Sequence record: PZ386974.1
Direction: 5' to 3' (one strand)
DNA: 64,000 bases
Source: a phage
The translations under genes and the position numbers were made by a program. Positions 18,726 to 54,822 of the stretch are shown piece by piece. The notes beneath the pieces were generated by a model. The model saw only the letters and a program-made list of their open reading frames with translations, was not told the DNA's origin and ran no database searches. The first letter of the stretch is position 1; each line of letters begins with the position of its first letter.

Positions 18726-19334
18726 TCAGTAACTGACAATAGACAGATTCCAAATTGTATAACGTCCATCTTGAATAATAGAATCTACACGCAGTGTAGT
18801 CCCTATAGGGAGCATAAATTCACATTCGTCAGATATAAGTCTAGCATTAGACCGTCTTGTCGCTTCAGGGAAAGCTCCATTGAACTCACAAGATGGCGCA
18901 GCCAGAATCATGTTAAGCATATGTTCACGGAAGTTGAAAGCAAATGATGCATCTTTGATGCAGAACATATTAAATGTTCCATAAAAATTATATGAAGCGA
19001 AGTTACGTGCTACACCAAACACCGGACTAAAGCTCATTACTCTGTCAAATTTAATAATACTACCAATGCCTTTATCATCAAGTGTGGCCATAGTTTTCTT
19101 AGAGATTCCACGATACATTGTCTCAGGAACAGAAGACGTCCAATTTCTACGAACGATTGAACTTAACTCCTGTTGAATACAGTCTGGCTTGTTTTCCATA
19201 CACTGCCAAAGGATGCTTTGTTCATTATCGTTGAATTGACTATCAATTTCGTACTGCAATACATCTTGATATTCGGGGTTTTGAGCACGACGAACCATTT
19301 CTTCAATTTCACACTCGTTATACGGCATAAACAT
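18726..19334 (-). CDS. modA: ADP-ribosyltransferase, ModA-like
   Basis: 202 aa; R (YRG), S-x-S and E-x-E motifs; paralog of adjacent ORF; T4 order srd-modA-modB. Confidence 0.5.
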   Translation of the reverse strand: MFMPYNECEIEEMVRRAQNPEYQDVLQYEIDSQFNDNEQSILWQCMENKPDCIQQELSSIVRRNWTSSVPETMYRGISKKTMATLDDKGIGSIIKFDRVMSFSPVFGVARNFASYNFYGTFNMFCIKDASFAFNFREHMLNMILAAPSCEFNGAFPEATRRSNARLISDECEFMLPIGTTLRVDSIIQDGRYTIWNLSIVSY

Positions 19335-22445: not shown

Positions 22446-22643
22446 ATGTTTAAACTTCCATCGTTAATCAACGCTATTAAAGGCAATAAAAAGAAAACTG
22501 CTATCGCTGCAATAGTTGTAGGTGGCATTATTTCATGGAACTTCGGGATTGCACCATTGTTAGTTGCCCATGGTATTATAGTTCCTTCTGTTCCATTGGA
22601 TACTGTAGTTGATTTGGCCTTTGCTATTATAGGGCTTGTTTAA
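22446..22643 (+). CDS. small membrane protein (65 aa), only convincing plus-strand gene
   Basis: ATG with TAAGGAG SD 6 nt upstream; hydrophobic; fills the gap between gp56 start and gp61 stop. Confidence 0.45.
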   Translation: MFKLPSLINAIKGNKKKTAIAAIVVGGIISWNFGIAPLLVAHGIIVPSVPLDTVVDLAFAIIGLV

Positions 22644-23662
22644 ATCTTCGAATAACGAGATAATCTCATTTTAGCATGCAACCCACTTGAAATATTCTGT
22701 TTCATATATTCTAAAATTTCTTGTGGTGTTGCATTTTCTTTCATTACCATATCATTCACATCCTTTGATCTCCATGGAGCTCGATCCCAGAACATGACAC
22801 GTTCGCCTGCATCAACTAATCGCTTCATGCGAGCTATAGTATCCGGATGCCTAGGTTCATTATCCATTACCCATACCCGACGCTCTTTAAATGGTACCAC
22901 ATCTAAATCTATTGAGCCGCCTGTAATAGCGATTGCGTTGGGTATGAATAAACTATCAATAGGACCTTCCATTACCCAGACGTCCCCTTCCTTAACACGT
23001 TCAACACCATAAATTTTTGTTGCAGACTCAAACGCTTTAATAGTGATATATTTCTGAGGAGCATCTTTACGAAGTGCACGTCCTTGGAACGACTCTGCCT
23101 TCCCATCTTTATTAAAAATAGGAATCACTAAACGCGGTTCAGGAATCTCTTTCTTATACGTACCCGGTTGAATCTTGTTGACCAATTTAGGCCATTCTAA
23201 TGTGAACCATAATCTGTTCCATGATTCTTTAGGAATGCATCGAGACTTAACATATTTCACAATAGGATGCTCTTCAGGCAGCTTGTCCAGACGAGAACAA
23301 GACGGCAAAGAATTTATAGTCTTTTTCTCCGGTTCTGGTTTATGTTCAGGAACCTTTTCAATCTTTGGTTCCATTCTAGCTTTTTCTTTACGAACTTCCA
23401 TTAGATACTCACGATAAAGCTCTTCATCATACTCTTTTAAGTATCCGGAAATTGTATTGTGGTATTGACAGTTATAGCAATGTACATTACCAGGAGTACC
23501 GCCATAATACCACCCGCGAGCTTTCATTGCATCTGTCTGGGAGTCGCCACAAACTGGACATCGAAACGTTAATTTAAATGTGCTTGAATTATTGATTTGT
23601 CTAAAACGAGGGAGGTGAGAAAACGCACGATAAGCAAATTCATTATCTATCCATTCAGCCAT
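22640..23662 (-). CDS. 61: DNA primase
   Basis: 340 aa; zinc ribbon CPVCGD...CYNC and Toprim EGPID; matches recalled T4 gp61. Confidence 0.9.
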   Translation of the reverse strand: MAEWIDNEFAYRAFSHLPRFRQINNSSTFKLTFRCPVCGDSQTDAMKARGWYYGGTPGNVHCYNCQYHNTISGYLKEYDEELYREYLMEVRKEKARMEPKIEKVPEHKPEPEKKTINSLPSCSRLDKLPEEHPIVKYVKSRCIPKESWNRLWFTLEWPKLVNKIQPGTYKKEIPEPRLVIPIFNKDGKAESFQGRALRKDAPQKYITIKAFESATKIYGVERVKEGDVWVMEGPIDSLFIPNAIAITGGSIDLDVVPFKERRVWVMDNEPRHPDTIARMKRLVDAGERVMFWDRAPWRSKDVNDMVMKENATPQEILEYMKQNISSGLHAKMRLSRYSKI

Positions 23663-23701
23663 AGTATTCTCCAGAGGCCTTAAATTAATAAGGCCATCTT
23701 A

Positions 23702-24169
23702 TCACAACTTATTAATATTTACTTTAATTCGCTTTCTTTTCTTGGAAGGAATTTGTTCTGGACCTTTATTTACGACTGCACCCGTAGTTGTTCCTGATGC
23801 AATAGCTTGAGGACTGCCGCCTGAATCACCAGCAACCATATCCTCAAATAAAGGGAGTTCTTTAAATATTTCTTTCTGTTGTTCTTCCGTAATGTTATAG
23901 CGTGAAGCTACAGCACTCCAAGCAGACATCATTGATGCCATTCCATTAAGACCTGGAACAGTGCTCATCATTCGCTTCATTGAACGAACTGAAGCATGAA
24001 AAGGTGTATACGCCGCTTTTTCTTCGGGAGTAGAAGGACGTTTAAGAACACTTCCACGTTCATCGATGATTTTGGCTTCGTATGCTTTCCATTCGGTAAA
24101 AGGTTTTTGCATTAGTCGAATAAACTTATATGCATAAACAGAATCTATTGCAGTGTTAATAATACCCAT
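23702..24169 (-). CDS. hypothetical protein (155 aa; 61.1 position)
   Basis: Track start is TTG; ATG at 24169 with AGGAGG SD. Confidence 0.5.
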   Translation of the reverse strand: MGIINTAIDSVYAYKFIRLMQKPFTEWKAYEAKIIDERGSVLKRPSTPEEKAAYTPFHASVRSMKRMMSTVPGLNGMASMMSAWSAVASRYNITEEQQKEIFKELPLFEDMVAGDSGGSPQAIASGTTTGAVVNKGPEQIPSKKRKRIKVNINKL

Positions 24170-24188
24170 AGGTACCTCCTGAGTATAT

Positions 24189-24386
24189 TTAATCAATTAC
24201 AAAGATTGCTTTGGCACCATTTATATCTGTGACTTCATATGTAGTGCCTTCATACTGTGGAATATTCCAAATTACACCATCATTAGCTTTTACGCTAATA
24301 TGGTATTGGTGTTTTGAAACAACTTCATAATCTTCAAAACTTGTAAAAACACTAATTTTAGAACCAGTGCAAATTGCAGTAGTCAT
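24189..24386 (-). CDS. hypothetical protein (65 aa)
   Basis: ATG with GAGG SD. Confidence 0.4.
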   Translation of the reverse strand: MTTAICTGSKISVFTSFEDYEVVSKHQYHISVKANDGVIWNIPQYEGTTYEVTDINGAKAIFVID

Positions 24387-24387
24387 T

Positions 24388-25038
24388 TTAACCTCGATTC
24401 ATAAATGCATTAAATATTTGGTCATCAACAGAAATTTCTAATTCGACTTCAATTGCTTCAGCCTTTTCTTCAGGTGGTAATTCGTATCCACACACTACAA
24501 TTTTTTCATCGATATCAAAATATACAGAAGCAATACGATTAATGTTATTTTCAGTTAAGTCCAAATCAACATCAACGTCTTTTTGGCCTACACTTAGAGG
24601 ATAACTAATACGGGTTATTTTATTATCTTTAACAAAGAGTCCACCAACATACTCTGTACTACGTTTGAAGTCTACACGTTTCCGAATTGAAAGATATGAT
24701 ACATCTTTACCGTGAGCTCGGCTCATAGGACATAATGAATAACTAGAATAAGAGATGTCAAATCCTACACCTTCAATATGAGCCAACGCGTCATGATTAA
24801 ACCAATTATAATCATATGCCAAATCCATTATATTGTAATATGTGAAAGGCACAGGATTAACATCATATGTTGTACCTTTAAAATCTGCCCAGGCAACGAT
24901 TTCGTTATCTTTAACAATTACAAAAATTACACCGAGATGGTATCCGTTATTATTTTCATTAGGCGTTATATTATAACATTGTGCATTAGGAAATTTACCA
25001 TATTTAAATGGTGCGTTTTTGTGCATATAATAAATCAT
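24388..25038 (-). CDS. hypothetical protein (216 aa; 61.2 position)
   Basis: Track start is GTG; ATG at 25038 with AGGTG SD. Confidence 0.5.
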   Translation of the reverse strand: MIYYMHKNAPFKYGKFPNAQCYNITPNENNNGYHLGVIFVIVKDNEIVAWADFKGTTYDVNPVPFTYYNIMDLAYDYNWFNHDALAHIEGVGFDISYSSYSLCPMSRAHGKDVSYLSIRKRVDFKRSTEYVGGLFVKDNKITRISYPLSVGQKDVDVDLDLTENNINRIASVYFDIDEKIVVCGYELPPEEKAEAIEVELEISVDDQIFNAFMNRG

Positions 25039-25039
25039 A

Positions 25040-25333
25040 TTATTCACCTGTGATTTCGGTTACGATATCTTTGTTATCGAAATTAGGGTCACAATACAAG
25101 ACATAGTTGTACTGCATGATACCACCAGACTTAAGTTGTTCAACAACTTTATTAACCATATTAGGACGGTCTCGTTTAGTGATGTTCATGATATCAGAGA
25201 AGATTTGTTGTTCAACATCTTCTTGATTTGCAGTCATTGACCACTCACAGAGGTCTTTATCATAACCTGCCGTAACTGGAGCCGGTGTACATGATACTGC
25301 AAGTAAGATTGCTGCCAATGATAACTTTTTCAT
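25040..25333 (-). CDS. sp: Spackle-like periplasmic superinfection-exclusion protein
   Basis: 97 aa; signal peptide MKKLSLAAILLAVSC; 97 aa as in T4 Sp; position 61.3; AAGGAG SD. Confidence 0.55.
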   Translation of the reverse strand: MKKLSLAAILLAVSCTPAPVTAGYDKDLCEWSMTANQEDVEQQIFSDIMNITKRDRPNMVNKVVEQLKSGGIMQYNYVLYCDPNFDNKDIVTEITGE

Positions 25334-25362
25334 TTTAACTCCTTAGTTGATTTGATAGGACT

Positions 25363-25392
25363 ACTATACTATAGTCCATCTATAATGTAAAC
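25363..25392 (-). promoter_or_regulatory. early-type promoter cassette (GTTTAC-N18-TATAGT)
   Basis: Upstream of sp. Confidence 0.5.
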
Positions 25393-25396
25393 AAGT

Positions 25397-25645
25397 TTAT
25401 TCTTTTTCGCGAATAATAATTACTTGTTGAGGCTGCTGAGCAGATTTCTTTTCGGCAACGATAGACCAAATTAAAGTTCCAATCCAACCAACCATCGTCC
25501 AGTTAAAGAGTAAAGATACAAAGAAGATTGCTGTTGTGCTTTTTGTGCCACGAATAAGTGCGATTATCCAAGGCAACATGTAAATGATGATTGAACCAAT
25601 ACCTGCGATTAAAACTGCTACTGAACTAGCTACGAATAATTCCAT
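25397..25645 (-). CDS. small membrane protein, two predicted TM helices (82 aa; 61.4 position)
   Basis: Hydrophobic segments; own early promoter. Confidence 0.5.
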   Translation of the reverse strand: MELFVASSVAVLIAGIGSIIIYMLPWIIALIRGTKSTTAIFFVSLLFNWTMVGWIGTLIWSIVAEKKSAQQPQQVIIIREKE

Positions 25646-25673
25646 GTTAATTTCCTCTTGATTTGTTATGTTT

Positions 25674-25703
25674 ATAGTATCTTATTTTAACTTTGGTGTA
25701 AAC
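25674..25703 (-). promoter_or_regulatory. early-type promoter (GTTTAC-N18-TACTAT)
   Basis: Upstream of 82-aa membrane ORF. Confidence 0.45.
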
Positions 25704-25706
25704 CAA

Positions 25707-26075
25707 TTAGTTAAATTTGTTTAAACGTTCAATACACTGGATGTAGTTATTCGCTATTTGTTTCTGGGTAGGCTCTTTACCGGTTGTTTCAACATAGCGA
25801 ATGAATGCGATTTCAGTAGCCTGTAAGCAATGTTCTTTAACGCGTTGTTCTTTTGACAATGCTACAGTATCAGAGTCACGATACCGTTGAGCATGAGCAT
25901 CAGCTTGAATCATTCGATTACCTACAGTAACCGGGTCTTCCACTTCAACTTTAGGTTGGTCATACTGTTTAACATTCGGATTGTAAATCAATTGGCCAAC
26001 GTTATTAGGGATAAAGCCATGGGCACCACATCCGGTTAATCCGAATACCATTGCTAAAGCGATTAATTTTTTCAT
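25707..26075 (-). CDS. putative lipoprotein (122 aa)
   Basis: Signal peptide with lipobox LTGC (MKKLIALAMVFGLTGC). Confidence 0.5.
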   Translation of the reverse strand: MKKLIALAMVFGLTGCGAHGFIPNNVGQLIYNPNVKQYDQPKVEVEDPVTVGNRMIQADAHAQRYRDSDTVALSKEQRVKEHCLQATEIAFIRYVETTGKEPTQKQIANNYIQCIERLNKFN

Positions 26076-26146
26076 TTCAATTTCCTCTGTAGTTGATAGA
26101 AAGATAGTAACACAGTATGCGGTGCTTGTAAACAGTTTATTTAAAA

Positions 26147-26335
26147 TTATCGAAAATCTGCTTCGAAAACTTTCTCGTCATTAACAAATGCTTTAACCAG
26201 TGCACTGTTCACTTCAGCAAGTTGTACCGTAACCCACTCGATTTCTTCGCGATCACCTGATAACATGATATCTTTAGTGAACATCTCACCGCTTTTAAAC
26301 CAGCCAATAAAAGTAACTTTAGTTAATTTGCTCAT
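26147..26335 (-). CDS. dmd: Dmd-like antitoxin (discriminator of mRNA degradation)
   Basis: 62 aa; FxGWFK..MFTK...AEVN.ALVKAF pattern matches recalled T4 Dmd; position 61.5 next to gene 41. Confidence 0.6.
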   Translation of the reverse strand: MSKLTKVTFIGWFKSGEMFTKDIMLSGDREEIEWVTVQLAEVNSALVKAFVNDEKVFEADFR

Positions 26336-26649
26336 ATTTCCTCACAGAATGCCCATTCAGCATGATAAACTGTAGCACCTTTAGTATCATTCATTTGAAC
26401 TACATCTACCGGAGAAATTACTCGATAGAGACGTGGTTCACCTCCATAAGAGCGTGCTGCTCGTCCTGCATAAATCTTTGCTAAACCGATATCTTCAGTA
26501 AAGAATACACGATCCAAGTTTTTCTTACGTCCAGTTTCAGACAGAACTCCTGTTTCCTCAGGAGGACAAAGCATGTTTTCGATGTTAGCTGAACTACTTG
26601 AACCGTGATAAAAAATCTTAAATTCTGCTTTACAATCGATGGTTTTCAT
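26332..26649 (-). CDS. hypothetical protein (105 aa)
   Basis: ATG; ATGA-coupled to dmd. Confidence 0.5.
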   Translation of the reverse strand: MKTIDCKAEFKIFYHGSSSSANIENMLCPPEETGVLSETGRKKNLDRVFFTEDIGLAKIYAGRAARSYGGEPRLYRVISPVDVVQMNDTKGATVYHAEWAFCEEI

Positions 26650-26675
26650 TTTGTTCTCCAGTAGTTGATAGGTCT

Positions 26676-26704
26676 ATAATAACACAACTACTGGAGAAGT
26701 AAAC
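26676..26704 (-). promoter_or_regulatory. early-type promoter cassette (GTTTAC-N17-TATTAT AGACCTATCA)
   Basis: Upstream of 105-aa ORF. Confidence 0.5.
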
Positions 26705-27079
26705 TTAAAAATGTAATTTAGATACATCTGCGTTGATTTCACTTTGGTTTGCGTCATATGCAATTAAACGAACCGCTTTAGATGGGTCATTCAATGCATA
26801 GAAATGATGGAACATTGCTCGAACGATATCACCATTTACGAGTTCTACCTGGATAGGAGAACCTTTTTCGAGTTGGAAATGTTCATAAGCTTTGATGGTT
26901 CGCAGATAATCAAGTTTTTGATTTCCGGCTCCAACGATTTGTACGATACGTTTGCCCATGTTTTCCATACGAGATACAATAGATTTAGGAGCAAGAATAA
27001 CGTAGGTTGCCAGCGGAGAAACTACTTCAACAGTTGTGTTTTCGGTGATTGCAGTAAAAATTGCTTGAGACATATTCAT
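26705..27079 (-). CDS. hypothetical protein (124 aa)
   Basis: ATG; own early promoter. Confidence 0.5.
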   Translation of the reverse strand: MNMSQAIFTAITENTTVEVVSPLATYVILAPKSIVSRMENMGKRIVQIVGAGNQKLDYLRTIKAYEHFQLEKGSPIQVELVNGDIVRAMFHHFYALNDPSKAVRLIAYDANQSEINADVSKLHF

Positions 27080-27108
27080 AATGTTTTCCTCTTGGTTGGT
27101 GTAAGTAC

Positions 27109-27138
27109 ATCATATCATGCCTAGAGGAAGATGTAAAC
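27109..27138 (-). promoter_or_regulatory. early-type promoter (GTTTAC-N18-TATGAT)
   Basis: Directly after gene 41 hairpin; upstream of 124-aa ORF. Confidence 0.45.
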
Positions 27139-27140
27139 CC

Positions 27141-27161
27141 CGAAAGGAGACCGAAGTCTCC
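27141..27161 (-). terminator. UUCG-tetraloop hairpin GGAGAC/GTCTCC (weak U-tail on minus strand, T5 on plus)
   Basis: 7 nt downstream of gene 41 stop. Confidence 0.35.
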
Positions 27162-27167
27162 TTTTTA

Positions 27168-28610
27168 TTAAAATTTTAACTCATTGGCTAAGCTATCTAG
27201 GTCAGCACGTGTTGCTTTGGCTTTACCTACGCGTTCCGTACGATTCACCTCTGCCTGACGCATCTGAGCACCTGCGTTTTCATTTACTGTGTTAGGTGTG
27301 TTCATGCCTTCTTGCTCAATCTCGATCCATTTCTGGTTGCCTTTACGTACACCCATCAGGAATTTATTCCACTTATTCTTATCACCATATCGTGATTTTA
27401 TTTGTTTGATAAGTTGTTGTTCAGCTTGTGCAAGTTCTTCGGTTTCAATTACGGCCAACATGAAATCTGCCGTTGCTGGTAAACCTGCTGATTCTGCGAT
27501 ATCACTCATGTTCATGTCTGAAGCATCCCATGCTGCACGTCCTACTTGAGCTGCAGTCCATAGAACTGTTTCAGATTCTACTGCTAATGCACGAAGTTCT
27601 TCTGCGATAGCTTTAACTAATGTGTAGCTATTTTCAGTGTAAACTCTGATACGACAAGACCCACAAATACCTAAGTAATCAACCATGATTACAGACGGCA
27701 CAAAGTTCTTCTTAAGTTTTAACTCATTAAGCAATGCACGAAATGTATTAGCATTAGCTCCACCAGTAGGATACTGTTTAACTACTAAACGTCCTAATGT
27801 GGATTTTGAACGCCATTTTTCCATCTTGGCTTTATATTCAGCATAAGATACGTTACCATCATCGATATCATCGAGTGATACGTCAAGCATGTTTGCATCT
27901 ATACGCTTAGCACAAACTTCTTCAGCCATTTCCATGGAAATATAAAGAACATTATGACCTGTTTGAAGATAATCTGCAGCAAGTGAACAAAGGCCTAAAG
28001 ATTTACCAACGTTAACACCGGCCATTAAAACATTCAGTGTACCGGTTTCAGCACCACCTTTAGTGATTTTATTCAGAATGTTTAATTTGAACGGGACCTT
28101 ACGTGCTTTATTTAGATAAGAAAGCCAGCGTGCTTCGTAGTCTTCCATCCAGTCATGTCCAACATAACTATCAAACGAAATTGAAAGTGCTTGACGCATA
28201 ATATCAGGAATAGCTCCTACGTCAGGCATTTTCTTGTTACGTTGTTCTGGAGGTAGTTCAGCATTAGACTGAATCTCAATGATTTTGGATGTAGCATTAT
28301 ACATCGCTTTTTGCTGGACATATTTCTCAGTTTCTTTAACCAACCATTCATGGTCTTCAGGAGTATCAGCCAATTTTTCAATTAGGTCTGAAGTTCCTTT
28401 ATATTCTGCTTCAGTTAAAGAACTATTATCTAAAGCCACCTTTAATGCATTGATAGATGGCATTGCATTATATTCGTTAACGTGGCTCTTTATAATTTTA
28501 AAGACGTTTTTTGCCGGTCCACGCTCAAAATACTCAGAATCCATATAAGGCCAGACCTTAGAAAAATAAGCCTGGTCATATACTAGATGAGACAAAATAA
28601 TTTCTACCAC
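27168..28610 (-). CDS. 41: replicative DNA helicase (DnaB-like)
   Basis: 480 aa; MVEIILSHL... and Walker A GVNVGKS match recalled T4 gp41; start codon is GTG after AAGGAG SD. Confidence 0.9.
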   Translation of the reverse strand: MVEIILSHLVYDQAYFSKVWPYMDSEYFERGPAKNVFKIIKSHVNEYNAMPSINALKVALDNSSLTEAEYKGTSDLIEKLADTPEDHEWLVKETEKYVQQKAMYNATSKIIEIQSNAELPPEQRNKKMPDVGAIPDIMRQALSISFDSYVGHDWMEDYEARWLSYLNKARKVPFKLNILNKITKGGAETGTLNVLMAGVNVGKSLGLCSLAADYLQTGHNVLYISMEMAEEVCAKRIDANMLDVSLDDIDDGNVSYAEYKAKMEKWRSKSTLGRLVVKQYPTGGANANTFRALLNELKLKKNFVPSVIMVDYLGICGSCRIRVYTENSYTLVKAIAEELRALAVESETVLWTAAQVGRAAWDASDMNMSDIAESAGLPATADFMLAVIETEELAQAEQQLIKQIKSRYGDKNKWNKFLMGVRKGNQKWIEIEQEGMNTPNTVNENAGAQMRQAEVNRTERVGKAKATRADLDSLANELKF

Positions 28611-28619
28611 GATAACTCC

Positions 28620-28961
28620 TTAAAAGAATTTAAATTTTTTCTTGGTCCGTTCATTAAAAGCTTGTTGTACTTGCATTGTAACACATTTTTCAACATGTGG
28701 TGCAAGTTCTGCTTTTCTGTCCTGATCAAGAACTGCAAAGTCCATTACGATTTTACCATCAACCCAGTCTAGTTTTGTAATATAGACTATATGATGGGAA
28801 CCGTCTTCAAGTGTAATCAGAATCTCTTGAATGACATTTTCCATTGCTGAACGGACAATTTTAAGAGATTCATTAAACACTCGTTCTTTGCGAATGTCTT
28901 CCCCTTCCGAAGAAGGGGATTCATCAACGATTTCTAGATTTAAATCATCGAGATTATTCAT
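28620..28961 (-). CDS. 40: gp40-like protein (113 aa)
   Basis: Position between uvsX and 41 as in T4; track start is TTG, ATG at 28961. Confidence 0.45.
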   Translation of the reverse strand: MNNLDDLNLEIVDESPSSEGEDIRKERVFNESLKIVRSAMENVIQEILITLEDGSHHIVYITKLDWVDGKIVMDFAVLDQDRKAELAPHVEKCVTMQVQQAFNERTKKKFKFF

Positions 28962-30224: not shown

Positions 30225-30773
30225 TTAACGAGCCCATTTGATGATTTCTGTAATCAAACCATTACGTTCGCTTGCATTAAATCCTATAACTTTGTTAGCA
30301 CCATCATGATTAAGTAATTGATACGTTTGGATTTTGTTATGAATTGCAAACTCTTCAAAATGTGAAATGACTGTATTAAAACCGAATGAAGACAAAGTAA
30401 TAAGGTCGTCTTCAAAACTTTCAGTCATTTCGTTACGTGTTAAAATAATTGTGAACACATCATGGTTTTGGCAAAGACGAACATAATCCTGTTCATAAAC
30501 ATCAAGAACCGAGTCCGCATCTTGTCGAATACGTCCATAAACCCAGTTACTAATATATCCACGGTCTAACAGATAAATCTTAGTAGGGTCTAAATAATTC
30601 AACATCGTTTCGAAACAGCCAACTTCATTTCGAGACTTAACATCGAAACGTCCATCAACCGTTCGTTTAGGGAAATCAATCTTTACATATCTTTCACTAA
30701 TTTCCATTATGTCATTAATGAAAGTTGTTTTACCAGCATTATCCGGGCCATCTACTAAAATAATTTTAGCCAT
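30225..30773 (-). CDS. P-loop kinase-like protein (182 aa)
   Basis: Walker A GPDNAGKTT near N-terminus; small nucleotide/sugar kinase-like size. Confidence 0.5.
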   Translation of the reverse strand: MAKIILVDGPDNAGKTTFINDIMEISERYVKIDFPKRTVDGRFDVKSRNEVGCFETMLNYLDPTKIYLLDRGYISNWVYGRIRQDADSVLDVYEQDYVRLCQNHDVFTIILTRNEMTESFEDDLITLSSFGFNTVISHFEEFAIHNKIQTYQLLNHDGANKVIGFNASERNGLITEIIKWAR

Positions 30774-30774
30774 T

Positions 30775-31674
30775 TTATTCCTCGATTACGACATCTTCGT
30801 ATTTAGGTATATTATACGGCGAAGAAATTAAAGCATTAAAGTAGATGAACTCACCAAGACCTGGATGGAATACTTCTTCAGGATTTTCGAAATATTGAAT
30901 CTTCGGACGTCCTTTAAGAATTTGATAGTACTCAGTTTTAGTTGGTTTAAAAATTCGAATCAGCGCTTCTTCAGGATACTTATTTCTGTCGAAGCTATTA
31001 TTTGGATCGGTTATATAAAGCGGTTGGCCTAATTGAATTGCACATTCAACCACTTGTTCAAAACGATAGCATGGGTCACTAATTCGAAATGGATGAAAAA
31101 TACCATCTAGATGAATAGGAGCCAAATCACCTACAAGACGCTGCATGATGGAAGGACGTATAACTTTCTGCGTTACGATAATCTTATTACCATCTGCACC
31201 TGCGTTAACCAGCACTTCTTTTTGACGTTCATTCAACACAGTAGTTTGAAGTGAACGATTAACAGACAACATGTCGGTTTTTAAGAATTCATCAATATAA
31301 AAACGTGGTTTATTAGGGTCTGCAGTGATATTGAAATTGAATTCTACGTCAAAAGCGCCATCATATCCAGTGATATCTGTGATTAGAAAATCACAATCAT
31401 AATAAGCAATTAATGAATCAACCACAAATTCATTTTCAGACCAGAAATATTTACGAGTGTTATACGCGTTATCTTTATACCATAATGGAACAAACTTAAA
31501 TTCTGGGAAAAGACGTTCACATTCTTTAATATCAGATGCATTACGTGGATATGTAATCACATCGCCTGGATTAGCACGGTGCAAATGAAGTTGGAAGTTG
31601 CCATCCTTAAGGATAGCATACTGTCCAGTTTCATAAGACCGCATACTCAAAATAGGTACGCGGAAAATAGCCAT
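30775..31674 (-). CDS. hypothetical protein in beta-glucosyltransferase position (299 aa)
   Basis: Occupies T4 beta-gt locus between 42 and uvsX; no recognisable motif; TAATG-coupled to gene 42. Confidence 0.45.
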   Translation of the reverse strand: MAIFRVPILSMRSYETGQYAILKDGNFQLHLHRANPGDVITYPRNASDIKECERLFPEFKFVPLWYKDNAYNTRKYFWSENEFVVDSLIAYYDCDFLITDITGYDGAFDVEFNFNITADPNKPRFYIDEFLKTDMLSVNRSLQTTVLNERQKEVLVNAGADGNKIIVTQKVIRPSIMQRLVGDLAPIHLDGIFHPFRISDPCYRFEQVVECAIQLGQPLYITDPNNSFDRNKYPEEALIRIFKPTKTEYYQILKGRPKIQYFENPEEVFHPGLGEFIYFNALISSPYNIPKYEDVVIEE

Positions 31675-32390
31675 TAGTCAAGAAATCCTTTAACATAATC
31701 AAAATCACGTTCAAACACATGGGCACTTACCATGGTATGAGTATAATCACCAACTTCTACACCACATTCGTTAGCGATATAATGAAGTAATTTTCCTTGG
31801 AGATAAAAATCCAACTGCATAACAACAGCACAGTTCTGAGAACGCATATGACAGTGGGTATAAAGCTTACCATCGCGAATATAATAAGTCACTGAGTCAG
31901 TACATGGATATTCAAGCGTTTCGTCCGAATCAAGCAAAGCCTGATCAGAACTTTCTAGAATTTGGAACACAACTCTTCGAGAGTTAGGCTTCTCTTTAAG
32001 TTCTTTTAGAAGAGCCGGTAATTGGGCCGCAATGCGAGGACCATAGAAAGTGTTGAAGTTCGCAGGCAAAGCATCTGATTTTGGTTTAGAAATAAATTTA
32101 GCGACATTAGGATATGCTTTAAACGCTTCTTCTGCATCAGTACCACCAGAAATCATAAACTTCCAGAAGTCTTCGGCATATTCATAAGAGATGCGGTTAA
32201 TACGTGGGTCGGTCATTTTGAATGATGATGGATTGTCAACAACTACTGTCATGGACCCGATTTCATTACAACGTCCAATACGAGAATTAGTTACGAATTC
32301 GGGGTTTTCTAAAATTTCACGATTGACTGCTTTAAATGCGGTTTGAAAATCTGCGGCTTTGATATATTTCATTGTGTTATGTTTTCCCAT
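31674..32390 (-). CDS. 42: dCMP hydroxymethylase (thymidylate synthase family)
   Basis: 238 aa; active-site region YPCTDSVTYYIRDGKLYTHCHMRSQN parallels TS/gp42 PC(H)...YQRSxD core. Confidence 0.65.
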   Translation of the reverse strand: MGKHNTMKYIKAADFQTAFKAVNREILENPEFVTNSRIGRCNEIGSMTVVVDNPSSFKMTDPRINRISYEYAEDFWKFMISGGTDAEEAFKAYPNVAKFISKPKSDALPANFNTFYGPRIAAQLPALLKELKEKPNSRRVVFQILESSDQALLDSDETLEYPCTDSVTYYIRDGKLYTHCHMRSQNCAVVMQLDFYLQGKLLHYIANECGVEVGDYTHTMVSAHVFERDFDYVKGFLD

Positions 32391-32432
32391 GTTTACCTCA
32401 ATACAATTTATTATATACTCAATTCGTAAAGC

Positions 32433-32672
32433 TTATTTGAATTTCTTGGCAATGTTGATATAACGTAAAGCTTCAGAATCTATACTTCCAAGAACACTAT
32501 GAAGGAATGCATCAGTGTAGTATTCCAATTGAACAGGTTCTTTAATCACTTTAGCCGCTTTGGTTTCAAACAGGCCCATAAGGGCCTTTTTAAGAATTTG
32601 TTCGTTAGTGTTCAGTTTAATAGTCAAAATCTCTTCGTTAAGATTATAATTAAAAGTTTTTCTAGAAATCAT
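32433..32672 (-). CDS. hypothetical protein (79 aa)
   Basis: ATG ATGA-coupled to upstream ORF. Confidence 0.4.
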   Translation of the reverse strand: MISRKTFNYNLNEEILTIKLNTNEQILKKALMGLFETKAAKVIKEPVQLEYYTDAFLHSVLGSIDSEALRYINIAKKFK

Positions 32673-33838
32673 TCCGGGTACCTCAAAGCGTCATCAGAGT
32701 TAGTTATATCAATAATAGATATAGAGTTTTCTGCTAACCCGTTTTTAGATAATTGACGTTTATAATACCTTTCACAATATGTACACGTTGACCCACAGAT
32801 TTCATTAGCACAATCAAAATCTGGATGTCTGAACCACCTTTTTTCTAAAAAGCCATCTAACAAAGAGGTTTCAATATTTACTGTATGTGAAAACTCAGTC
32901 TCATTTTCAAGAGTGAAAATAGTCTCTAAAGGCTTCCACAGTTCTAACAAATTACCTTCAAACTTTTCAGAAGCGTATGCTTCAAGAACTTTCAAAATGT
33001 AGTCTGTGCTACCTGTACGTCCTGAAACTTTGAATTGAGTGATACCAATATCATTATAAAGTTTCAAATCTTGAGGACGAACAAAACGAGTTCTCAACCA
33101 ATTAAATGGGTCTGTATCACGAGCTTTAATACAGTGCTGCATTGGATATCCGTTTAAGGATTTAGCATCATCAGCTGTAACATCAGTACTATGGAAAATA
33201 TAGCAAGAGTCACGATAGCTACAATGTGTTGTATACCCTTTACCAGCATTAGAACAGAACTCGTTTACAAGAACTTCAAATATTATATTGTTCTTATTGC
33301 AAAACTCTGCTGCACGCTTCAGGAAAGAAACTGAACGGTTCTTATGAATTCCGCAACAGACCTTTTTGATGTTATATTGGTCATGCAAGTATTTGATTTG
33401 AGTTACAGCATCGACATGTAGAATTGTTGAAACTTCAATCTCAATATCTTTATTGACTTCACGAACAATTTCCATAACAACAGGGTTAGCGATAGTAATA
33501 CGCCATACGCCTATTGACCAAAGATACTGAACATAATCCTGAATAGCTTTCTTCTTCCACTCAACTAGTTCTCTTTTTGAACCAGGATTTATCGTGTTGA
33601 GTGTATAGTTAAAGCAAATACCTAATTCGTTACAACGTTTAACGTAATCTTCTAACATCTTTTTGTCAACGTCAGGAAGCCTAAAATCAGGTCTGGCTGC
33701 TACAAAAGCCATTTCTCTTGTAGAGCCGTATACTTCGTTTATCAAGCTATTAGGATAAGTTTTATTGAGCTCTACGATTTTATCAAGAAGAGCTAAATCA
33801 AAATTCGTTCCGATTTTAAAAGTATTCATTTTTTGCAT
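32669..33838 (-). CDS. Cys-rich enzyme of unknown function (389 aa), candidate Fe-S protein
   Basis: C-terminal CANEICGSTCTYC (CX4CX3CXYC) plus internal CSNAGKGYTTHCSYRDSC cluster; embedded in sugar module. Confidence 0.5.
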   Translation of the reverse strand: MQKMNTFKIGTNFDLALLDKIVELNKTYPNSLINEVYGSTREMAFVAARPDFRLPDVDKKMLEDYVKRCNELGICFNYTLNTINPGSKRELVEWKKKAIQDYVQYLWSIGVWRITIANPVVMEIVREVNKDIEIEVSTILHVDAVTQIKYLHDQYNIKKVCCGIHKNRSVSFLKRAAEFCNKNNIIFEVLVNEFCSNAGKGYTTHCSYRDSCYIFHSTDVTADDAKSLNGYPMQHCIKARDTDPFNWLRTRFVRPQDLKLYNDIGITQFKVSGRTGSTDYILKVLEAYASEKFEGNLLELWKPLETIFTLENETEFSHTVNIETSLLDGFLEKRWFRHPDFDCANEICGSTCTYCERYYKRQLSKNGLAENSISIIDITNSDDALRYPE

Positions 33839-33884
33839 CTCGCGTTAATTGATGCGATGGTTTTTGCAGGTCTTACTTAAATTA

Positions 33885-34286
33885 TTATAGGTTCGGTTTA
33901 TATGATTTAAATGTTTCGAATTCGCCTTTATTCATAAGAGCTTTGAATTCGTCGGGACGCATAGCTTTGTCGTCGATAATCCAATCATATACTGGTTTAT
34001 GTGTTAGCAAATTATGGTACTTCAAACCAATGTTTTCCAAGTTCTGAATCAGACTTGGGAGAATGTCAATTGCTATACGACCAGGACCTACTGACTTCAT
34101 ACCGCGAGCAGTGTAAAGCGTTATGGTATGCCCTGCATCATACAGGGCATTAATGGCAGACACCATTTCGACGTCTGGTTTGAAGTTCACGTAATCACGA
34201 TTGTTATTCCACTCTGTTATACAATCATCGACATCAAAATAAAGATTAAGCATGTTTTCTACACGGTGCATTAGATTCGTTCCCAT
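33885..34286 (-). CDS. HAD-superfamily phosphatase-like protein (133 aa)
   Basis: Motif I FDVDDCIT near N-terminus and DD motif DWIIDD near C-terminus. Confidence 0.5.
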   Translation of the reverse strand: MGTNLMHRVENMLNLYFDVDDCITEWNNNRDYVNFKPDVEMVSAINALYDAGHTITLYTARGMKSVGPGRIAIDILPSLIQNLENIGLKYHNLLTHKPVYDWIIDDKAMRPDEFKALMNKGEFETFKSYKPNL

Positions 34287-35956
34287 TGATGAGTGATATC
34301 GCCACCGATTGGACGGTAAGAAACACCAGTTTCTTTATCAGTTAGTACCCATTTACCAGGATTTTTTGTAATCAGAGTAGCCGTTACAGGTTCTGCTACG
34401 TCATAACTAATAGAGCCGTCTTGAAGTACACGGCCCATGTTACGTAATTGCTTAGTCAGAAGTTCCATACCTTTATAATATGCGGCTACCGCTTTAAGTG
34501 GATTATTCTTGAAATAACCACCTAATGCAATCCAGATAATTGCTACGGCCAAATGATGATACTCGTTAAACGAACTCAGCTTTCCATATTTGTAAATTAA
34601 TGGATTGATGTTAATAGTCACATTACAAGTTGTTTCGTCAATAGTAAACTGTCCCCAGGTCGGATTAGCGTTGAATTCATCATAACCTGAAACAGCATAA
34701 AGCACTTTAGCTTCATCATACAATTTTGGCCCGTAAATCTTGGTTTCACCAAAATATCCACGAGGGTCGATAAACTTGACTTCGCCGTTATCAGTAATCA
34801 TAGTATTACTGAAGTTCGGGTCACCATGAATAACAGAGTACTGTCCCTGAGAACGGTTATGATAACGAATAAGGTGTTCTAAAGCTTGTTTCAGCATTGG
34901 CTTCAGACGCCCAATCTTAGTGTAGTTCACATGGGTGATTTTACCAAATGAATCAATCAATGGTTGAATGCTTTCACAACGATCAATAACTTTCGTATAG
35001 AATTCTTTAGTGAAATCACGACGAACAGTTTCAGGACTTACAAAATAAGTGTCTGTGCTGAATTTCAGTGCATCTAAAATTGCATCAACAATTTGTGGAC
35101 GAGCAAGACTTGATTTGGATTTAATATATTCAAATGCCGGCTTACCTTTAATGCGTTCCATTTCAAAGTTATTTTCATTAACAGAAACTAACTGAGGAAC
35201 TGAATCTGATTTCACTTTAAGATACCATGAAATCTCATCTTTCTGAAGAGCTCGACCCTGTTCGGTTAATGCGAATTTAGTTACAGTTTCTTCACCAATT
35301 TCAACTGCATTAAAACTACGATTAAGTTCACGAACTTCATGAGCTTTTTCAAGTTTAGGCATATCACCTAAATCAATTAGATTCATAAGCTCTGATTTAT
35401 TGAATGCGCTGCCGTAAAGGAATTCTACGAAATCACGTCCTTTGCAGTATTCATGAATTTCCTCATCGGTAGAACCCATATAGAATTCCCAGTCTTTGAA
35501 CTGATAAATTCCTACAACATTACCACCTGTTGAACCTACGTTAGTGATATTTTCACCGTCGAAATTATATCGACATTCGTCACCCTTAACATAGATTGCG
35601 TTAACATTCCAAGACCATGAACCAAAATCGGGAATAATATCACACCAGTTAACAATTACATTATGGCCGTCTAAATCTTTGTGTAATTTAGCAAGAGCAT
35701 AAGCAGAACCATACGCTTCATCAACTGTGCGAATAGTCACATTGAACCCTTCTTGCTCACAATAAGCTCGAACAGTTTCAGCAAATTTTGAATGAACTAC
35801 TACAATAATTTCATCTGCGCCAAGGTCAGAATAAATTGTATACAAATTGCTCAGAATAGTGTCTTGTTTATAGTTAACAAGCACCTTAGGAATATGATGC
35901 GTTATTGGATATAAACGAGTCGCCAGTCCAGCACCAAGAATAACAGCTTTTTTCAT
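34271..35956 (-). CDS. bifunctional sugar-1-phosphate nucleotidyltransferase / APH-like sugar kinase
   Basis: N-terminus ILGAGLATRLYPIT (G-x-G-T-R-L NTase motif); C-terminal HGDPNFSNTMITDNGEVKFIDPRG (Brenner kinase motif). Confidence 0.7.
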   Translation of the reverse strand: MKKAVILGAGLATRLYPITHHIPKVLVNYKQDTILSNLYTIYSDLGADEIIVVVHSKFAETVRAYCEQEGFNVTIRTVDEAYGSAYALAKLHKDLDGHNVIVNWCDIIPDFGSWSWNVNAIYVKGDECRYNFDGENITNVGSTGGNVVGIYQFKDWEFYMGSTDEEIHEYCKGRDFVEFLYGSAFNKSELMNLIDLGDMPKLEKAHEVRELNRSFNAVEIGEETVTKFALTEQGRALQKDEISWYLKVKSDSVPQLVSVNENNFEMERIKGKPAFEYIKSKSSLARPQIVDAILDALKFSTDTYFVSPETVRRDFTKEFYTKVIDRCESIQPLIDSFGKITHVNYTKIGRLKPMLKQALEHLIRYHNRSQGQYSVIHGDPNFSNTMITDNGEVKFIDPRGYFGETKIYGPKLYDEAKVLYAVSGYDEFNANPTWGQFTIDETTCNVTININPLIYKYGKLSSFNEYHHLAVAIIWIALGGYFKNNPLKAVAAYYKGMELLTKQLRNMGRVLQDGSISYDVAEPVTATLITKNPGKWVLTDKETGVSYRPIGGDITHQWERI

Positions 35957-35997
35957 GTTGAAGTCCTCATTGGTAAGTAGGAGTATTGTACACTATT

Positions 35998-36141
35998 CTA
36001 GTTAAAGCATTCATACTTTGCTTGTAGTCCAATCATAATCCATCCAATTACAAGTGTTGGAATCATTACTGGAGCCGTTAAGCTCCAGTAGATAGTCATG
36101 ACAAGCATCAATAGTAAAAGTCCTATTGTTATTGCTTTCAT
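35998..36141 (-). CDS. small membrane peptide (47 aa), below track threshold
   Basis: ATGA-coupled to SIS gene stop; translation MKAITIGLLLLMLVMTIYWSLTAPVMIPTLVIGWIMIGL... Confidence 0.3.
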   Translation of the reverse strand: MKAITIGLLLLMLVMTIYWSLTAPVMIPTLVIGWIMIGLQAKYECFN

Positions 36142-36773
36142 TGTTCGCCTCGTAACATGGCACCTAGTGCACCGCCTGGATGGAACTTAAGGAAGTCATT
36201 AGAGGTAAATCCACGCTCAGACGAAAGGTTGATAGCGAACGTATCGATAAGCGCTAACAACAATGTAGTGGACATAGTCGGAGCTAAAGAGTTCTCGTCA
36301 ACTTCTACCGCGATACCGGTACAGAACGTATAATCAAAAAGAGCTTCGTATTCTTGTGGAATGTCAGGGTTACAATGTAACAGAATCTGTTTAACCTGAG
36401 GACGAATCATACGAAGATGTTTAGCAACACCTATCATTTCTTCAGTCTTACCAGAACGACTGATGTGAACTAATACATCATTAGGTGCAATAAATCCTGC
36501 GTCACCATGAGAATAATGCCCGGTGTTCAAGTACATACTCGGGATACCGAGTGAAGCAAATGTCTCAGAAGCTTTAGTTGCAATATTAGCATTCTTACCA
36601 ACACCTGTAATAATTACTCGGCTTTCATAATTACTAAGTCCTGGGCGTCGAAGAGTTTCTAGAATAGCATTATAACGAGCAGGGTTTTGACTAATTACTT
36701 TGGCCATAGCGGCCAAAGAAGAAGCTTGTTTTATGATTGCGTCAATAGCGATAGTAATAGGAGTAGTTTTCAT
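36138..36773 (-). CDS. SIS-domain sugar-phosphate isomerase (KdsD/GutQ-like arabinose-5-phosphate isomerase type)
   Basis: 211 aa; GVGKNANIA...HGDAG...SRSGKTEE...LAPTMSTT match SIS/API motifs. Confidence 0.7.
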   Translation of the reverse strand: MKTTPITIAIDAIIKQASSLAAMAKVISQNPARYNAILETLRRPGLSNYESRVIITGVGKNANIATKASETFASLGIPSMYLNTGHYSHGDAGFIAPNDVLVHISRSGKTEEMIGVAKHLRMIRPQVKQILLHCNPDIPQEYEALFDYTFCTGIAVEVDENSLAPTMSTTLLLALIDTFAINLSSERGFTSNDFLKFHPGGALGAMLRGEQ

Positions 36774-54350: not shown

Positions 54351-54521
54351 TCAATATTCTCTATAAAAGTTACGATGAGAACGTTTAGCTTTGCGAAGCT
54401 GACGTTTAGTAGGACGAACTGTAAATGGTTGTCCAGAGAAAAAATTCGGATCGGTTTTAATAAGCAAATACCAATCATGCTTGCCATTTTTTAATAAACG
54501 GTACAATAATTTAACTTGCAT
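54351..54521 (-). CDS. hypothetical basic protein (56 aa)
   Basis: Track start is TTG; ATG at 54521 with GGAAGAG SD. Confidence 0.3.
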   Translation of the reverse strand: MQVKLLYRLLKNGKHDWYLLIKTDPNFFSGQPFTVRPTKRQLRKAKRSHRNFYREY

Positions 54522-54822
54522 AATAATCTCTTCCCATTTCCATATCAATTAATTCATTTATTGAAGGTTCATCATAACACGTTTCTTCGTCGTTGTAAAA
54601 TGTTTCGACGTCTGGCTCGACCGTCTCCCATCGAGCCGAATACCACGGTTTAACCGCGGAGCTTATTGAGCTCTTCATAATCAATCCAGGATTCTAGTCC
54701 GGATGGTAAAGCCGATTCAATTTCCCAAAGAAGCTCTTCAATTTTTTGAAGACGATCTAATTCTTCAACAGGAATAGTAACCATTGATGGAGCTCTTGCT
54801 GCACTAATATCGTAAATCATAT

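Follow-up and report, generated by a model that had tools for sequence, protein, structure and literature searches.

Imm of phage T4 is an inner-membrane protein that prevents DNA entry by superinfecting phage. A further T4 exclusion protein, Spackle (Sp), binds and inhibits the gp5 tail lysozyme (PMC7677548), and its gene is located in the interval between the helicase gene 41 and the primase gene 61, which also carries dmd, 61.4, 61.2 and 61.1. T4 Dmd neutralises the RnlA/LsoA toxins (cited in PMC9391042), the product of T4 61.4, TifA, is a ToxN inhibitor (PMC9391042), and AdfA, the product of 61.2, is an anti-DarT factor that was discovered via escape mutants of phage RB69 (PMC11257639). 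Three counter-defence factors from the 41-61 interval, Dmd, TifA and AdfA, have thus been characterised, and the interval has proved a good place to search for others. In addition, a type II toxin–antitoxin (TA) system consisting of an ADP-ribosyltransferase (ART) of the p0068 family and a Dmd antitoxin was predicted by Iyer, Burroughs, Anantharaman and Aravind in 2022 for phages of Escherichia, Shigella and Salmonella (PMC9503650). Here, the corresponding interval of a further phage was analysed, i.e. a block of nine minus-strand open reading frames (ORFs) at 23702-27079 of sequence record PZ386974.1, the whole 64,000-nucleotide (nt) stretch of which is referred to as the window.

The interval between genes 41 and 61

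The 3.6 kb around the block were 98.4% identical to Escherichia phage vB_EcoM_PhAPEC2 (Mosigvirus, RB69 group), and 153 phage records, all of them RB69-type T-even phages of the genus Mosigvirus, matched the block at 95-99% identity over at least 80% of its length. Protein matches in T4 order were obtained across the window for rIIA, 39, dexA, dda, srd, a Mod-like gene, 56, 61, 41, uvsX, 42 and 43. From the positions of gene 41 (27168-28610) and gene 61 (22640-23662) and the minus-strand location of the block genes, transcription proceeds in the direction from 41 to 61. The stretch is very probably a hyperplastic early accessory region of a Mosigvirus phage of the RB69/PhAPEC2 type, with at least five separately promoted units that encode exclusion, counter-defence, ART-fold and small cytoplasmic proteins. 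In the direction of transcription, the following genes were found:

26705-27079, minus strand: RB69ORF041c homologue (ORF041c), 124 aa, cytoplasmic; C-terminal half predicted as SH3/Tudor-like beta-barrel
26332-26649, minus strand: RB69ORF040c homologue (ORF040c, the ART gene), 105 aa, predicted minimal ART-fold protein
26147-26335, minus strand: dmd, 62 aa; Pfam Dmd (PF17587), E 4e-20, 72 bits against a cut-off of 27
25707-26075, minus strand: imm.1, 122 aa, predicted lipoprotein; Pfam DUF5481 (PF17578), 37 bits against a cut-off of 27; annotated as imm.1 in RB69
25397-25645, minus strand: imm, 82 aa; Pfam Imm_superinfect (PF14373), E 9e-16, 58 bits against a cut-off of 27.9
25040-25333, minus strand: sp (spackle), 97 aa; Pfam T4_Spackle (PF25676), E 2e-42, 144 bits against a cut-off of 27
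24388-25038, minus strand: adfA (T4 61.2), 216 aa from an ATG preceded by a Shine–Dalgarno sequence; Pfam AdfA (PF23813), E 3e-119, 396 bits, full model length
24189-24386, minus strand: RB69ORF033c homologue (ORF033c), 65 aa, acidic, cytoplasmic; phrog_3249, E 5e-32
23702-24169, minus strand: long form of 61.1, 155 aa from an ATG preceded by AGGAGG; phrog_2086, E 1e-73

Each block gene matched a PHROG family (E 1e-28 to 1e-131) and is preceded by a Shine–Dalgarno sequence; together with the conservation in 153 records and the early-type promoters described below, this identifies the ORFs as real genes and not as chance frames. Plus-strand ORFs inside the block (e.g. 24778-25053 and 26804-27124) were provisionally classed as chance frames on the antisense strand, and an Rfam scan of 22500-28700 gave zero matches. 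An identity could be assigned to seven of the nine genes, the remaining two being ORF041c and the 65-aa ORF. All ORFs named in an initial annotation of this stretch, which was made from the sequence alone, were recovered in place on the minus strand between genes 61 and 41. Three further genes within the block, adfA, the 65-aa ORF and the 155-aa 61.1-like gene, had not been mentioned there.

The T4 interval has the same flanks and strand, contains dmd, sp, 61.2 and 61.1 in the same order (56-75% protein identity), and uses the same type of early promoter. Extra in the window compared with T4 are ORF041c and the ART gene upstream of dmd and the 65-aa ORF between adfA and the 61.1-like gene. For ORF040c, ORF041c and the 65-aa ORF, tblastn and profile hidden Markov models (HMMs) found no counterpart in the whole 168,903-bp T4 genome (best E 0.18-0.33), and the initial annotation, which had recognised no T4 counterpart for the 105- and 124-aa ORFs, was right on this point. 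Conversely, tifA (61.4) is missing from the interval in the window, imm.1-imm, which in T4 lies between genes 42 and 43 and 6 kb away from sp, adjoins sp here, and the 61.1 product comprises 155 aa in the window versus 54 aa in T4. RB69 (AY303349) has the order ORF041c-ORF040c-dmd-61.4-imm.1-imm-sp-61.2-ORF033c-ORF032c/61.1, which is essentially the locus of the window plus tifA; its ORF040c copy is 99% identical. Since RB69 and many close relatives have these genes in their annotations, little in the window is new, and the block is already known biology: published functions exist for sp, imm, dmd and adfA, and the ART–Dmd association was described computationally in 2022.

Promoters of the T4 early type were located in every intergenic gap. 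Five matches to GTTTAC(A/T)-N16/17-TAnnAT, the established consensus of T4 early promoters, were found ahead of ORF041c, the ART gene, imm.1, imm and sp:

27109-27137, minus strand: ORF041c promoter, GTTTACA-N17-TATGAT with extended TG
26676-26703, minus strand: promoter of the ART gene and dmd, GTTTACT-N16-TATTAT
26104-26132, minus strand: imm.1 early promoter, homologous to the T4 imm.1 promoter
25674-25702, minus strand: imm early promoter, GTTTACA-N17-TACTAT
25363-25391, minus strand: sp early promoter, GTTTACA-N17-TATAGT

On the basis of these predicted promoter positions, the block would be divided into at least five units: ORF041c; ART-dmd; imm.1; imm; and sp-adfA-ORF033c-61.1. It is a string of separate early units and not one integrated machine. 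In T4, dmd-61.4 is driven by an early promoter (PMC9391042). The accessory proteins would be made immediately after infection from these independent units and would fall into proteins for superinfection exclusion, proteins for counter-defence against host toxin–antitoxin systems, the ART-fold protein, which would be co-translated with Dmd, and three small cytoplasmic proteins (124, 65 and 155 aa). This analysis supplied the gene identities, the export signals, the promoters, the synteny and the ART fold; what Imm, Sp, Dmd and AdfA do was carried over from the T4 and RB69 literature.

Exclusion and counter-defence genes

The Sp-like periplasmic protein of the initial annotation is Spackle, with 65% identity to T4 Sp and matches to the PDB entries 6x6o and 7cn6. 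The mature 75-aa T4 chain of 7cn6 aligned to residues 23-97, which gives a signal peptide of 22 aa with cleavage after VTA; the N-terminus MKKLSLAAILLAV leads through a hydrophobic h-region to this VTA, followed by Gly. Both cysteines of mature Spackle (Cys29 and Cys81) are kept at the sequence level. By analogy with T4, the secreted protein would bind the tail lysozyme, gp5, of incoming phages and inhibit it.

The two-helix membrane protein was identified as Imm, an assignment that the initial annotation had not made. Its full-length alignment with T4 Imm shows 64% identity (53/83 residues), and the protein is hydrophobic over residues 1-60 (19-residue Kyte–Doolittle windows of at least 1.6 starting at residues 1 to 41, maximum 2.51), with two hydrophobic segments split by the polar stretch RGTKSTT. 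Located in the inner membrane like its T4 counterpart, it would block DNA entry of later phages. The gene at 25397-25645 is the sole imm homologue in the window, and the gene 42-43 interval contains none, being occupied by other genes. In the region from uvsX to gene 43 (30225-36773, minus strand), T4 segA, beta-gt, imm and imm.1 are replaced by larger genes (182, 299, 389, 133, 561 and 211 aa) around gene 42; in RB69, ORFs of this region are credited with peptidase U32, nucleotidyl transferase and SIS domain matches by a Pfam table of 2006.

The lipoprotein with the LTGC lipobox likewise received an identity that had been missed: it is Imm.1, with 32% identity to T4 Imm.1 over 125 columns (E 1e-18). 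Its N-terminus MKKLIALAMVFGLTGC is hydrophobic and carries the lipobox LTGC with Cys16 and Gly at +2 (by pattern match, not by a trained predictor), and the lipobox positions of the two proteins align (FGLTGC here, LGLAGC in T4 Imm.1). From Gly at +2, the E. coli +2 rule would predict an outer-membrane location for Imm.1. Another identity considered for this lipoprotein, an elongated T4 61.4, was dismissed (BLASTP E 0.1), T4 61.4 being DUF7279/TifA and the lipoprotein Imm.1. The order imm.1 then imm is kept in T4, RB69 and the window despite the different genomic position. Because the promoter and leader of imm.1 are homologous to those of T4 imm.1, the imm.1-imm pair was moved as a unit with its own promoter, and the fact that imm.1 stays directly upstream of imm in both genome arrangements suggests that Imm.1 is a probable helper of imm in exclusion.

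Among the counter-defence genes, dmd was confirmed, in agreement with the Dmd-like antitoxin of the initial annotation: the protein matched PDB 5i8j at E 1e-36 (60/62 residues identical) and 5hy3_B (T4 Dmd) at E 5e-17, and its identity to T4 Dmd is 56%. As an antitoxin mimic it would bind and neutralise RnlA/LsoA-type RNases. The largest gene of the block, adfA, encodes a protein with 66% identity to T4 gp61.2. Its start may be placed differently, as the RB69 annotation uses an ATG at 25026 and the open frame extends to a GTG at 25047. His164 is the neutralising AdfA allele, and Arg164 of RB69, Bas46 and Bas47 fails to bind E. coli DarT1 (PMC11257639). In the RB69 (MHKN) numbering, residue 164 of the window protein is Arg, and the His164 of the neutralising allele is not present. 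The protein is thus a member of the AdfA family for which no activity against the tested E. coli DarT1 is expected; it would bind DNA ADP-ribosyltransferases of the DarT1 type, though the Arg164 allele is non-binding for the tested one.

The third factor, tifA, sits between dmd and sp in T4 and between dmd and imm.1 in RB69, where a 70-aa form is kept. The gap between dmd and imm.1 in the window measures merely 71 nt, and tifA is therefore absent from the 41-61 interval, as in Bas46 and other PhAPEC2-type phages. Outside the block, a 65-aa ORF (54351-54548, minus strand) directly upstream of a pin homologue matched Pfam DUF7279 (PF23945, the TifA/61.4 family) at E 2e-14. It is the sole DUF7279 ORF of the window and bears the basic motif RPTKRQLRKAKR; a TifA-like gene is thus contained in this phage, outside the interval where T4 and RB69 keep tifA.

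ORF040c and alternative readings

Homologues of ORF040c were found in 149 clusters of a library of 5.8 billion proteins and in 610 phage records, comprising phages of Escherichia, Klebsiella, Acinetobacter, Aeromonas, Enterobacter, Cronobacter and Vibrio; a few of these records carry the label "putative ADP-ribosyl transferase". In a diverse alignment of 31 members, spanning Escherichia, Klebsiella, Acinetobacter, Aeromonas and Vibrio phages, the mean column identity was 69%, and Y14-H15-G16, E38, G40-R41, F49, T51, D53, Y60, R63 and E103, among others, were invariant in all 31 sequences. The AlphaFold2 model (pLDDT 86) consists of six strands and one long helix, i.e. the full six-strand ART core, and an independent Foldseek search placed Arr first (probability 1.00), followed by KptA. 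Y14-H15-G16 sits on strand 13-18 and takes the position of the NAD-binding strand-1 His of the ART superfamily. As judged from the model, ORF040c is a minimal protein of the ART fold in which the strand-1 His is retained; the invariant residues F49, Y60, D53, E38 and E103 are candidates for the second-motif aromatic residue and the catalytic acid.

The accessory ART gene is more conserved across phage genera than the genes of the essential gp41 helicase and gp61 primase, which is unusual for a gene that T4 lacks. In 17 of the 18 IMG/VR loci that contained both, the ORF040c homologue was closer to the window copy than gp41 was (78-90% versus 61-68% identity; gp61 47-61%). This conservation above gp41 argues for a constrained enzymatic function. 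As an active NAD+-using enzyme, ORF040c would, in the course of takeover, modify a nucleic-acid end or a conserved macromolecule of the host, both the catalysis and the target being inferred.

How closely the block genes belong together was judged at two levels. The name of the initial annotation, an envelope-targeted cluster, and an extension of it in which the whole block forms one integrated envelope-directed system, draw on the adjacency of imm.1, imm and sp, which all encode exported or membrane proteins; export signals were indeed found for Spackle (signal peptide), Imm (hydrophobic segments) and Imm.1 (lipobox). The other six of the nine proteins, however, have no signal peptide, lipobox or transmembrane segment, and the two ORFs without T4 counterpart are not envelope proteins, having a predicted ADP-ribosyltransferase fold (105 aa) and a predicted SH3/Tudor-like barrel (124 aa). 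Five separate promoters, a gene content that varies from phage to phage (T4, RB69, JS10, Acinetobacter and Klebsiella phages differ) and the 6 kb between imm.1-imm and sp in T4 also speak against one system, which we consider very unlikely. The broader suggestion of a superinfection-exclusion and anti-defence island holds in its content, with Imm, Spackle and Imm.1 beside Dmd and AdfA, and fails where a single system is meant. At the smaller scale, ORF040c and Dmd could be a phage-borne type II TA system, in which the ART toxin is restrained by Dmd and Dmd doubles against host RnlA/LsoA. We infer that ORF040c belongs to the p0068 family of Iyer et al.; the pairing of an ART gene with a dmd gene in their explicit prediction (PMC9503650) is the arrangement of the window. 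Here the TGA stop of the ART gene and the ATG of dmd overlap by 4 nt (ATGA), a single early promoter lies upstream and none between the two genes, and the adjacency recurs in RB69, JS10 and other Mosigvirus and Dhakavirus phages. Tight gene overlaps are, however, the norm in T4-like genomes, and an obligate pairing was not supported by the co-occurrence counts: dmd followed the ART gene in 10 of 64 IMG/VR loci, whereas in the other 54 no dmd was detected within 2.5 kb and the next ORF varied widely in size and family (46, 57, 81, 96, 124 or 155 aa, or none); Dmd-like proteins that are short and divergent could, however, be missed by tblastn. Small ORFs 3' of the ART gene in Klebsiella, Aeromonas and Acinetobacter phages were examined as Dmd candidates and rejected, since none matched Pfam Dmd and all belonged to unrelated PHROGs. 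The ART records include 116 from Klebsiella, 68 from Acinetobacter and 62 from Aeromonas phages, genera that are not among the Dmd matches, and conversely several hundred Tequatrovirus records contain Dmd without the ART, which T4 lacks anywhere in its genome. Because the two genes are separable on this scale, an obligate TA pair was rated as unlikely, and the preferred reading is that of a stand-alone enzyme that shares an operon with dmd in this lineage.

Whether this stand-alone protein is an enzyme, and of which kind, was weighed in the same way. A non-enzymatic NAD+/ADP-ribose-binding decoy or inhibitor, e.g. a mimic that titrates partners of host ART toxins (DarT, CmdT), would suit a core of 93-105 aa, smaller than any solved ART that was matched, the lack of a sequence-level match to catalytic ART families, and a region rich in anti-ART and anti-toxin factors (adfA, dmd). 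Yet the His of the HG[ST] NAD-binding motif, the C-terminal Glu and about 25 further positions are invariant across distant genera, the full six-strand ART core is predicted, and binders engaged in an arms race usually evolve fast, whereas ORF040c is more conserved than gp41; a decoy is accordingly improbable in our view. The Foldseek ranking brings up a different possibility, namely that ORF040c acts like Tpt1/KptA and Arr and ADP-ribosylates an RNA or DNA phosphate end or a small molecule instead of a protein. No sequence homology to Arr or Tpt1/KptA was detected, and ORF040c is 35-75 residues shorter. It covers the NAD-binding lobe of Tpt1 only (75/179 residues aligned), without the RNA-binding N-lobe, and has no second His in strand 2, while its invariant C-terminal Glu suits the H-Y-[EDQ] clade of protein- or DNA-modifying enzymes, in which the p0068-like family is placed by Iyer et al. 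(PMC9503650). An activity of the Tpt1/Arr kind was kept as a tentative, rather unlikely option. The anti-CRISPR ADP-ribosyltransferase AcrF11 (137 aa) showed no sequence relationship to ORF040c.

Some points weigh against the reading of the block as an early region of exclusion, counter-defence and ART-fold proteins. ORF040c gave no usable match in Pfam (E up to 0.1), NCBIfam or the PDB (phmmer or profile, E up to 10), and T4 and its close relatives manage without the ART, which is thus dispensable in some lineages. Deletion of T4 adfA had no phenotype and the R164 allele is reported as non-neutralising (PMC11257639). In the literature searched, no publication on Imm.1 and no experimental paper on ORF040c or ORF041c was found.

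A second locus of the window also encodes an ADP-ribosyltransferase: at 18735-19328 (minus strand) there is a single Mod-like gene, whose product has ~30% identity to T4 ModA and ModB, where T4 has two adjacent genes.

Small proteins, hairpins and significance

ORF041c was confined to Mosigvirus-like phages, and a search of 1.84 billion representative proteins gave three true relatives only. Weak matches to a 3411-aa Big_9/cadherin adhesin and to a 224-aa protein were treated as beta-strand-rich noise, matches to 3trj and 3-dehydroquinate dehydratase were sub-threshold noise, and Pfam, NCBIfam and PDB searches (phmmer/profile) gave no usable match. The model was of low confidence in the N-terminal half (pLDDT <50, residues 17-51) and interpretable for the C-terminal barrel alone, the predicted SH3/Tudor-like fold of which is too generic to assign a function. 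The 65-aa ORF033c homologue is 68% identical to an ORF of JS10.

Upstream, the frame of the 61.1-like gene stays open as far as a TTG at 24196. T4 gp61.1 in its entirety matches the last ~48 aa of the 155-aa product (69-75% identity), and the C-terminal motif DMVAGDSGG...GAVVNKGPEQIP is conserved. The gene adjoins gene 61 in many T4-like genera, as seen in many IMG/VR loci; a single ORF of 155 aa here and in Bas46, it was split into two (ORF032c and 61.1) in the RB69 annotation, and T4 has the 54-aa C-terminal part only. On the other side of gene 61, between genes 56 and 61, a strongly hydrophobic 65-aa ORF (22446-22643, plus strand) lies in the interval that carries dam in T4; it is hypothetical in Bas46.

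Two of the early promoters are embedded in inverted repeats:

26655-26697, minus strand: 14-bp hairpin with the -10 box of the ART promoter inside it and the GGAG Shine–Dalgarno sequence of the ART gene in its 3' arm; fold -22.1 kcal/mol, z -4.4
25358-25377, minus strand: 6-bp hairpin around the -10 box of the sp promoter

The shorter hairpin at the sp promoter has a parallel around the T4 dmd promoter (gap from 41 to dmd, L009 20554-20611). The 14-bp hairpin would occlude the ribosome-binding site of the ART gene solely in RNA that reads through from upstream, not in RNA from the local promoter. As it is not conserved in JS10, it is not claimed as a regulatory element of the family. Both edges of the block also carry a stable hairpin on the minus strand, one just after gene 41 (27146-27161, GGAGAC-UUCG-GUCUCC) and one just before gene 61 (23676-23695, GGCCUUA...UAAGGCC), which were not called as terminators by a consensus scan because the T-run is short.

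In this Mosigvirus-type lineage, Imm and Spackle, both classic exclusion functions, are placed side by side. The residual interest of the locus comes from the conserved mini-ART; its gene, less studied than any other of the block, is found in over 600 sequenced T4-like phages. It is conceivable, albeit doubtful, that ORF040c is an active ART, the smallest known (~95-aa core), and is co-translated with Dmd in Mosigvirus and Dhakavirus because Dmd restrains or directs it, Dmd then being a dual-purpose antitoxin, against RnlA/LsoA of the host and against the ART of the phage itself. In this reading the ART would modify an RNA or protein of the host that is highly conserved, which would account for its slower evolution compared with the replicative helicase. 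A defined target for ORF040c would add a fourth type of ADP-ribosyltransferase to T-even biology, beside Alt, ModA and ModB.

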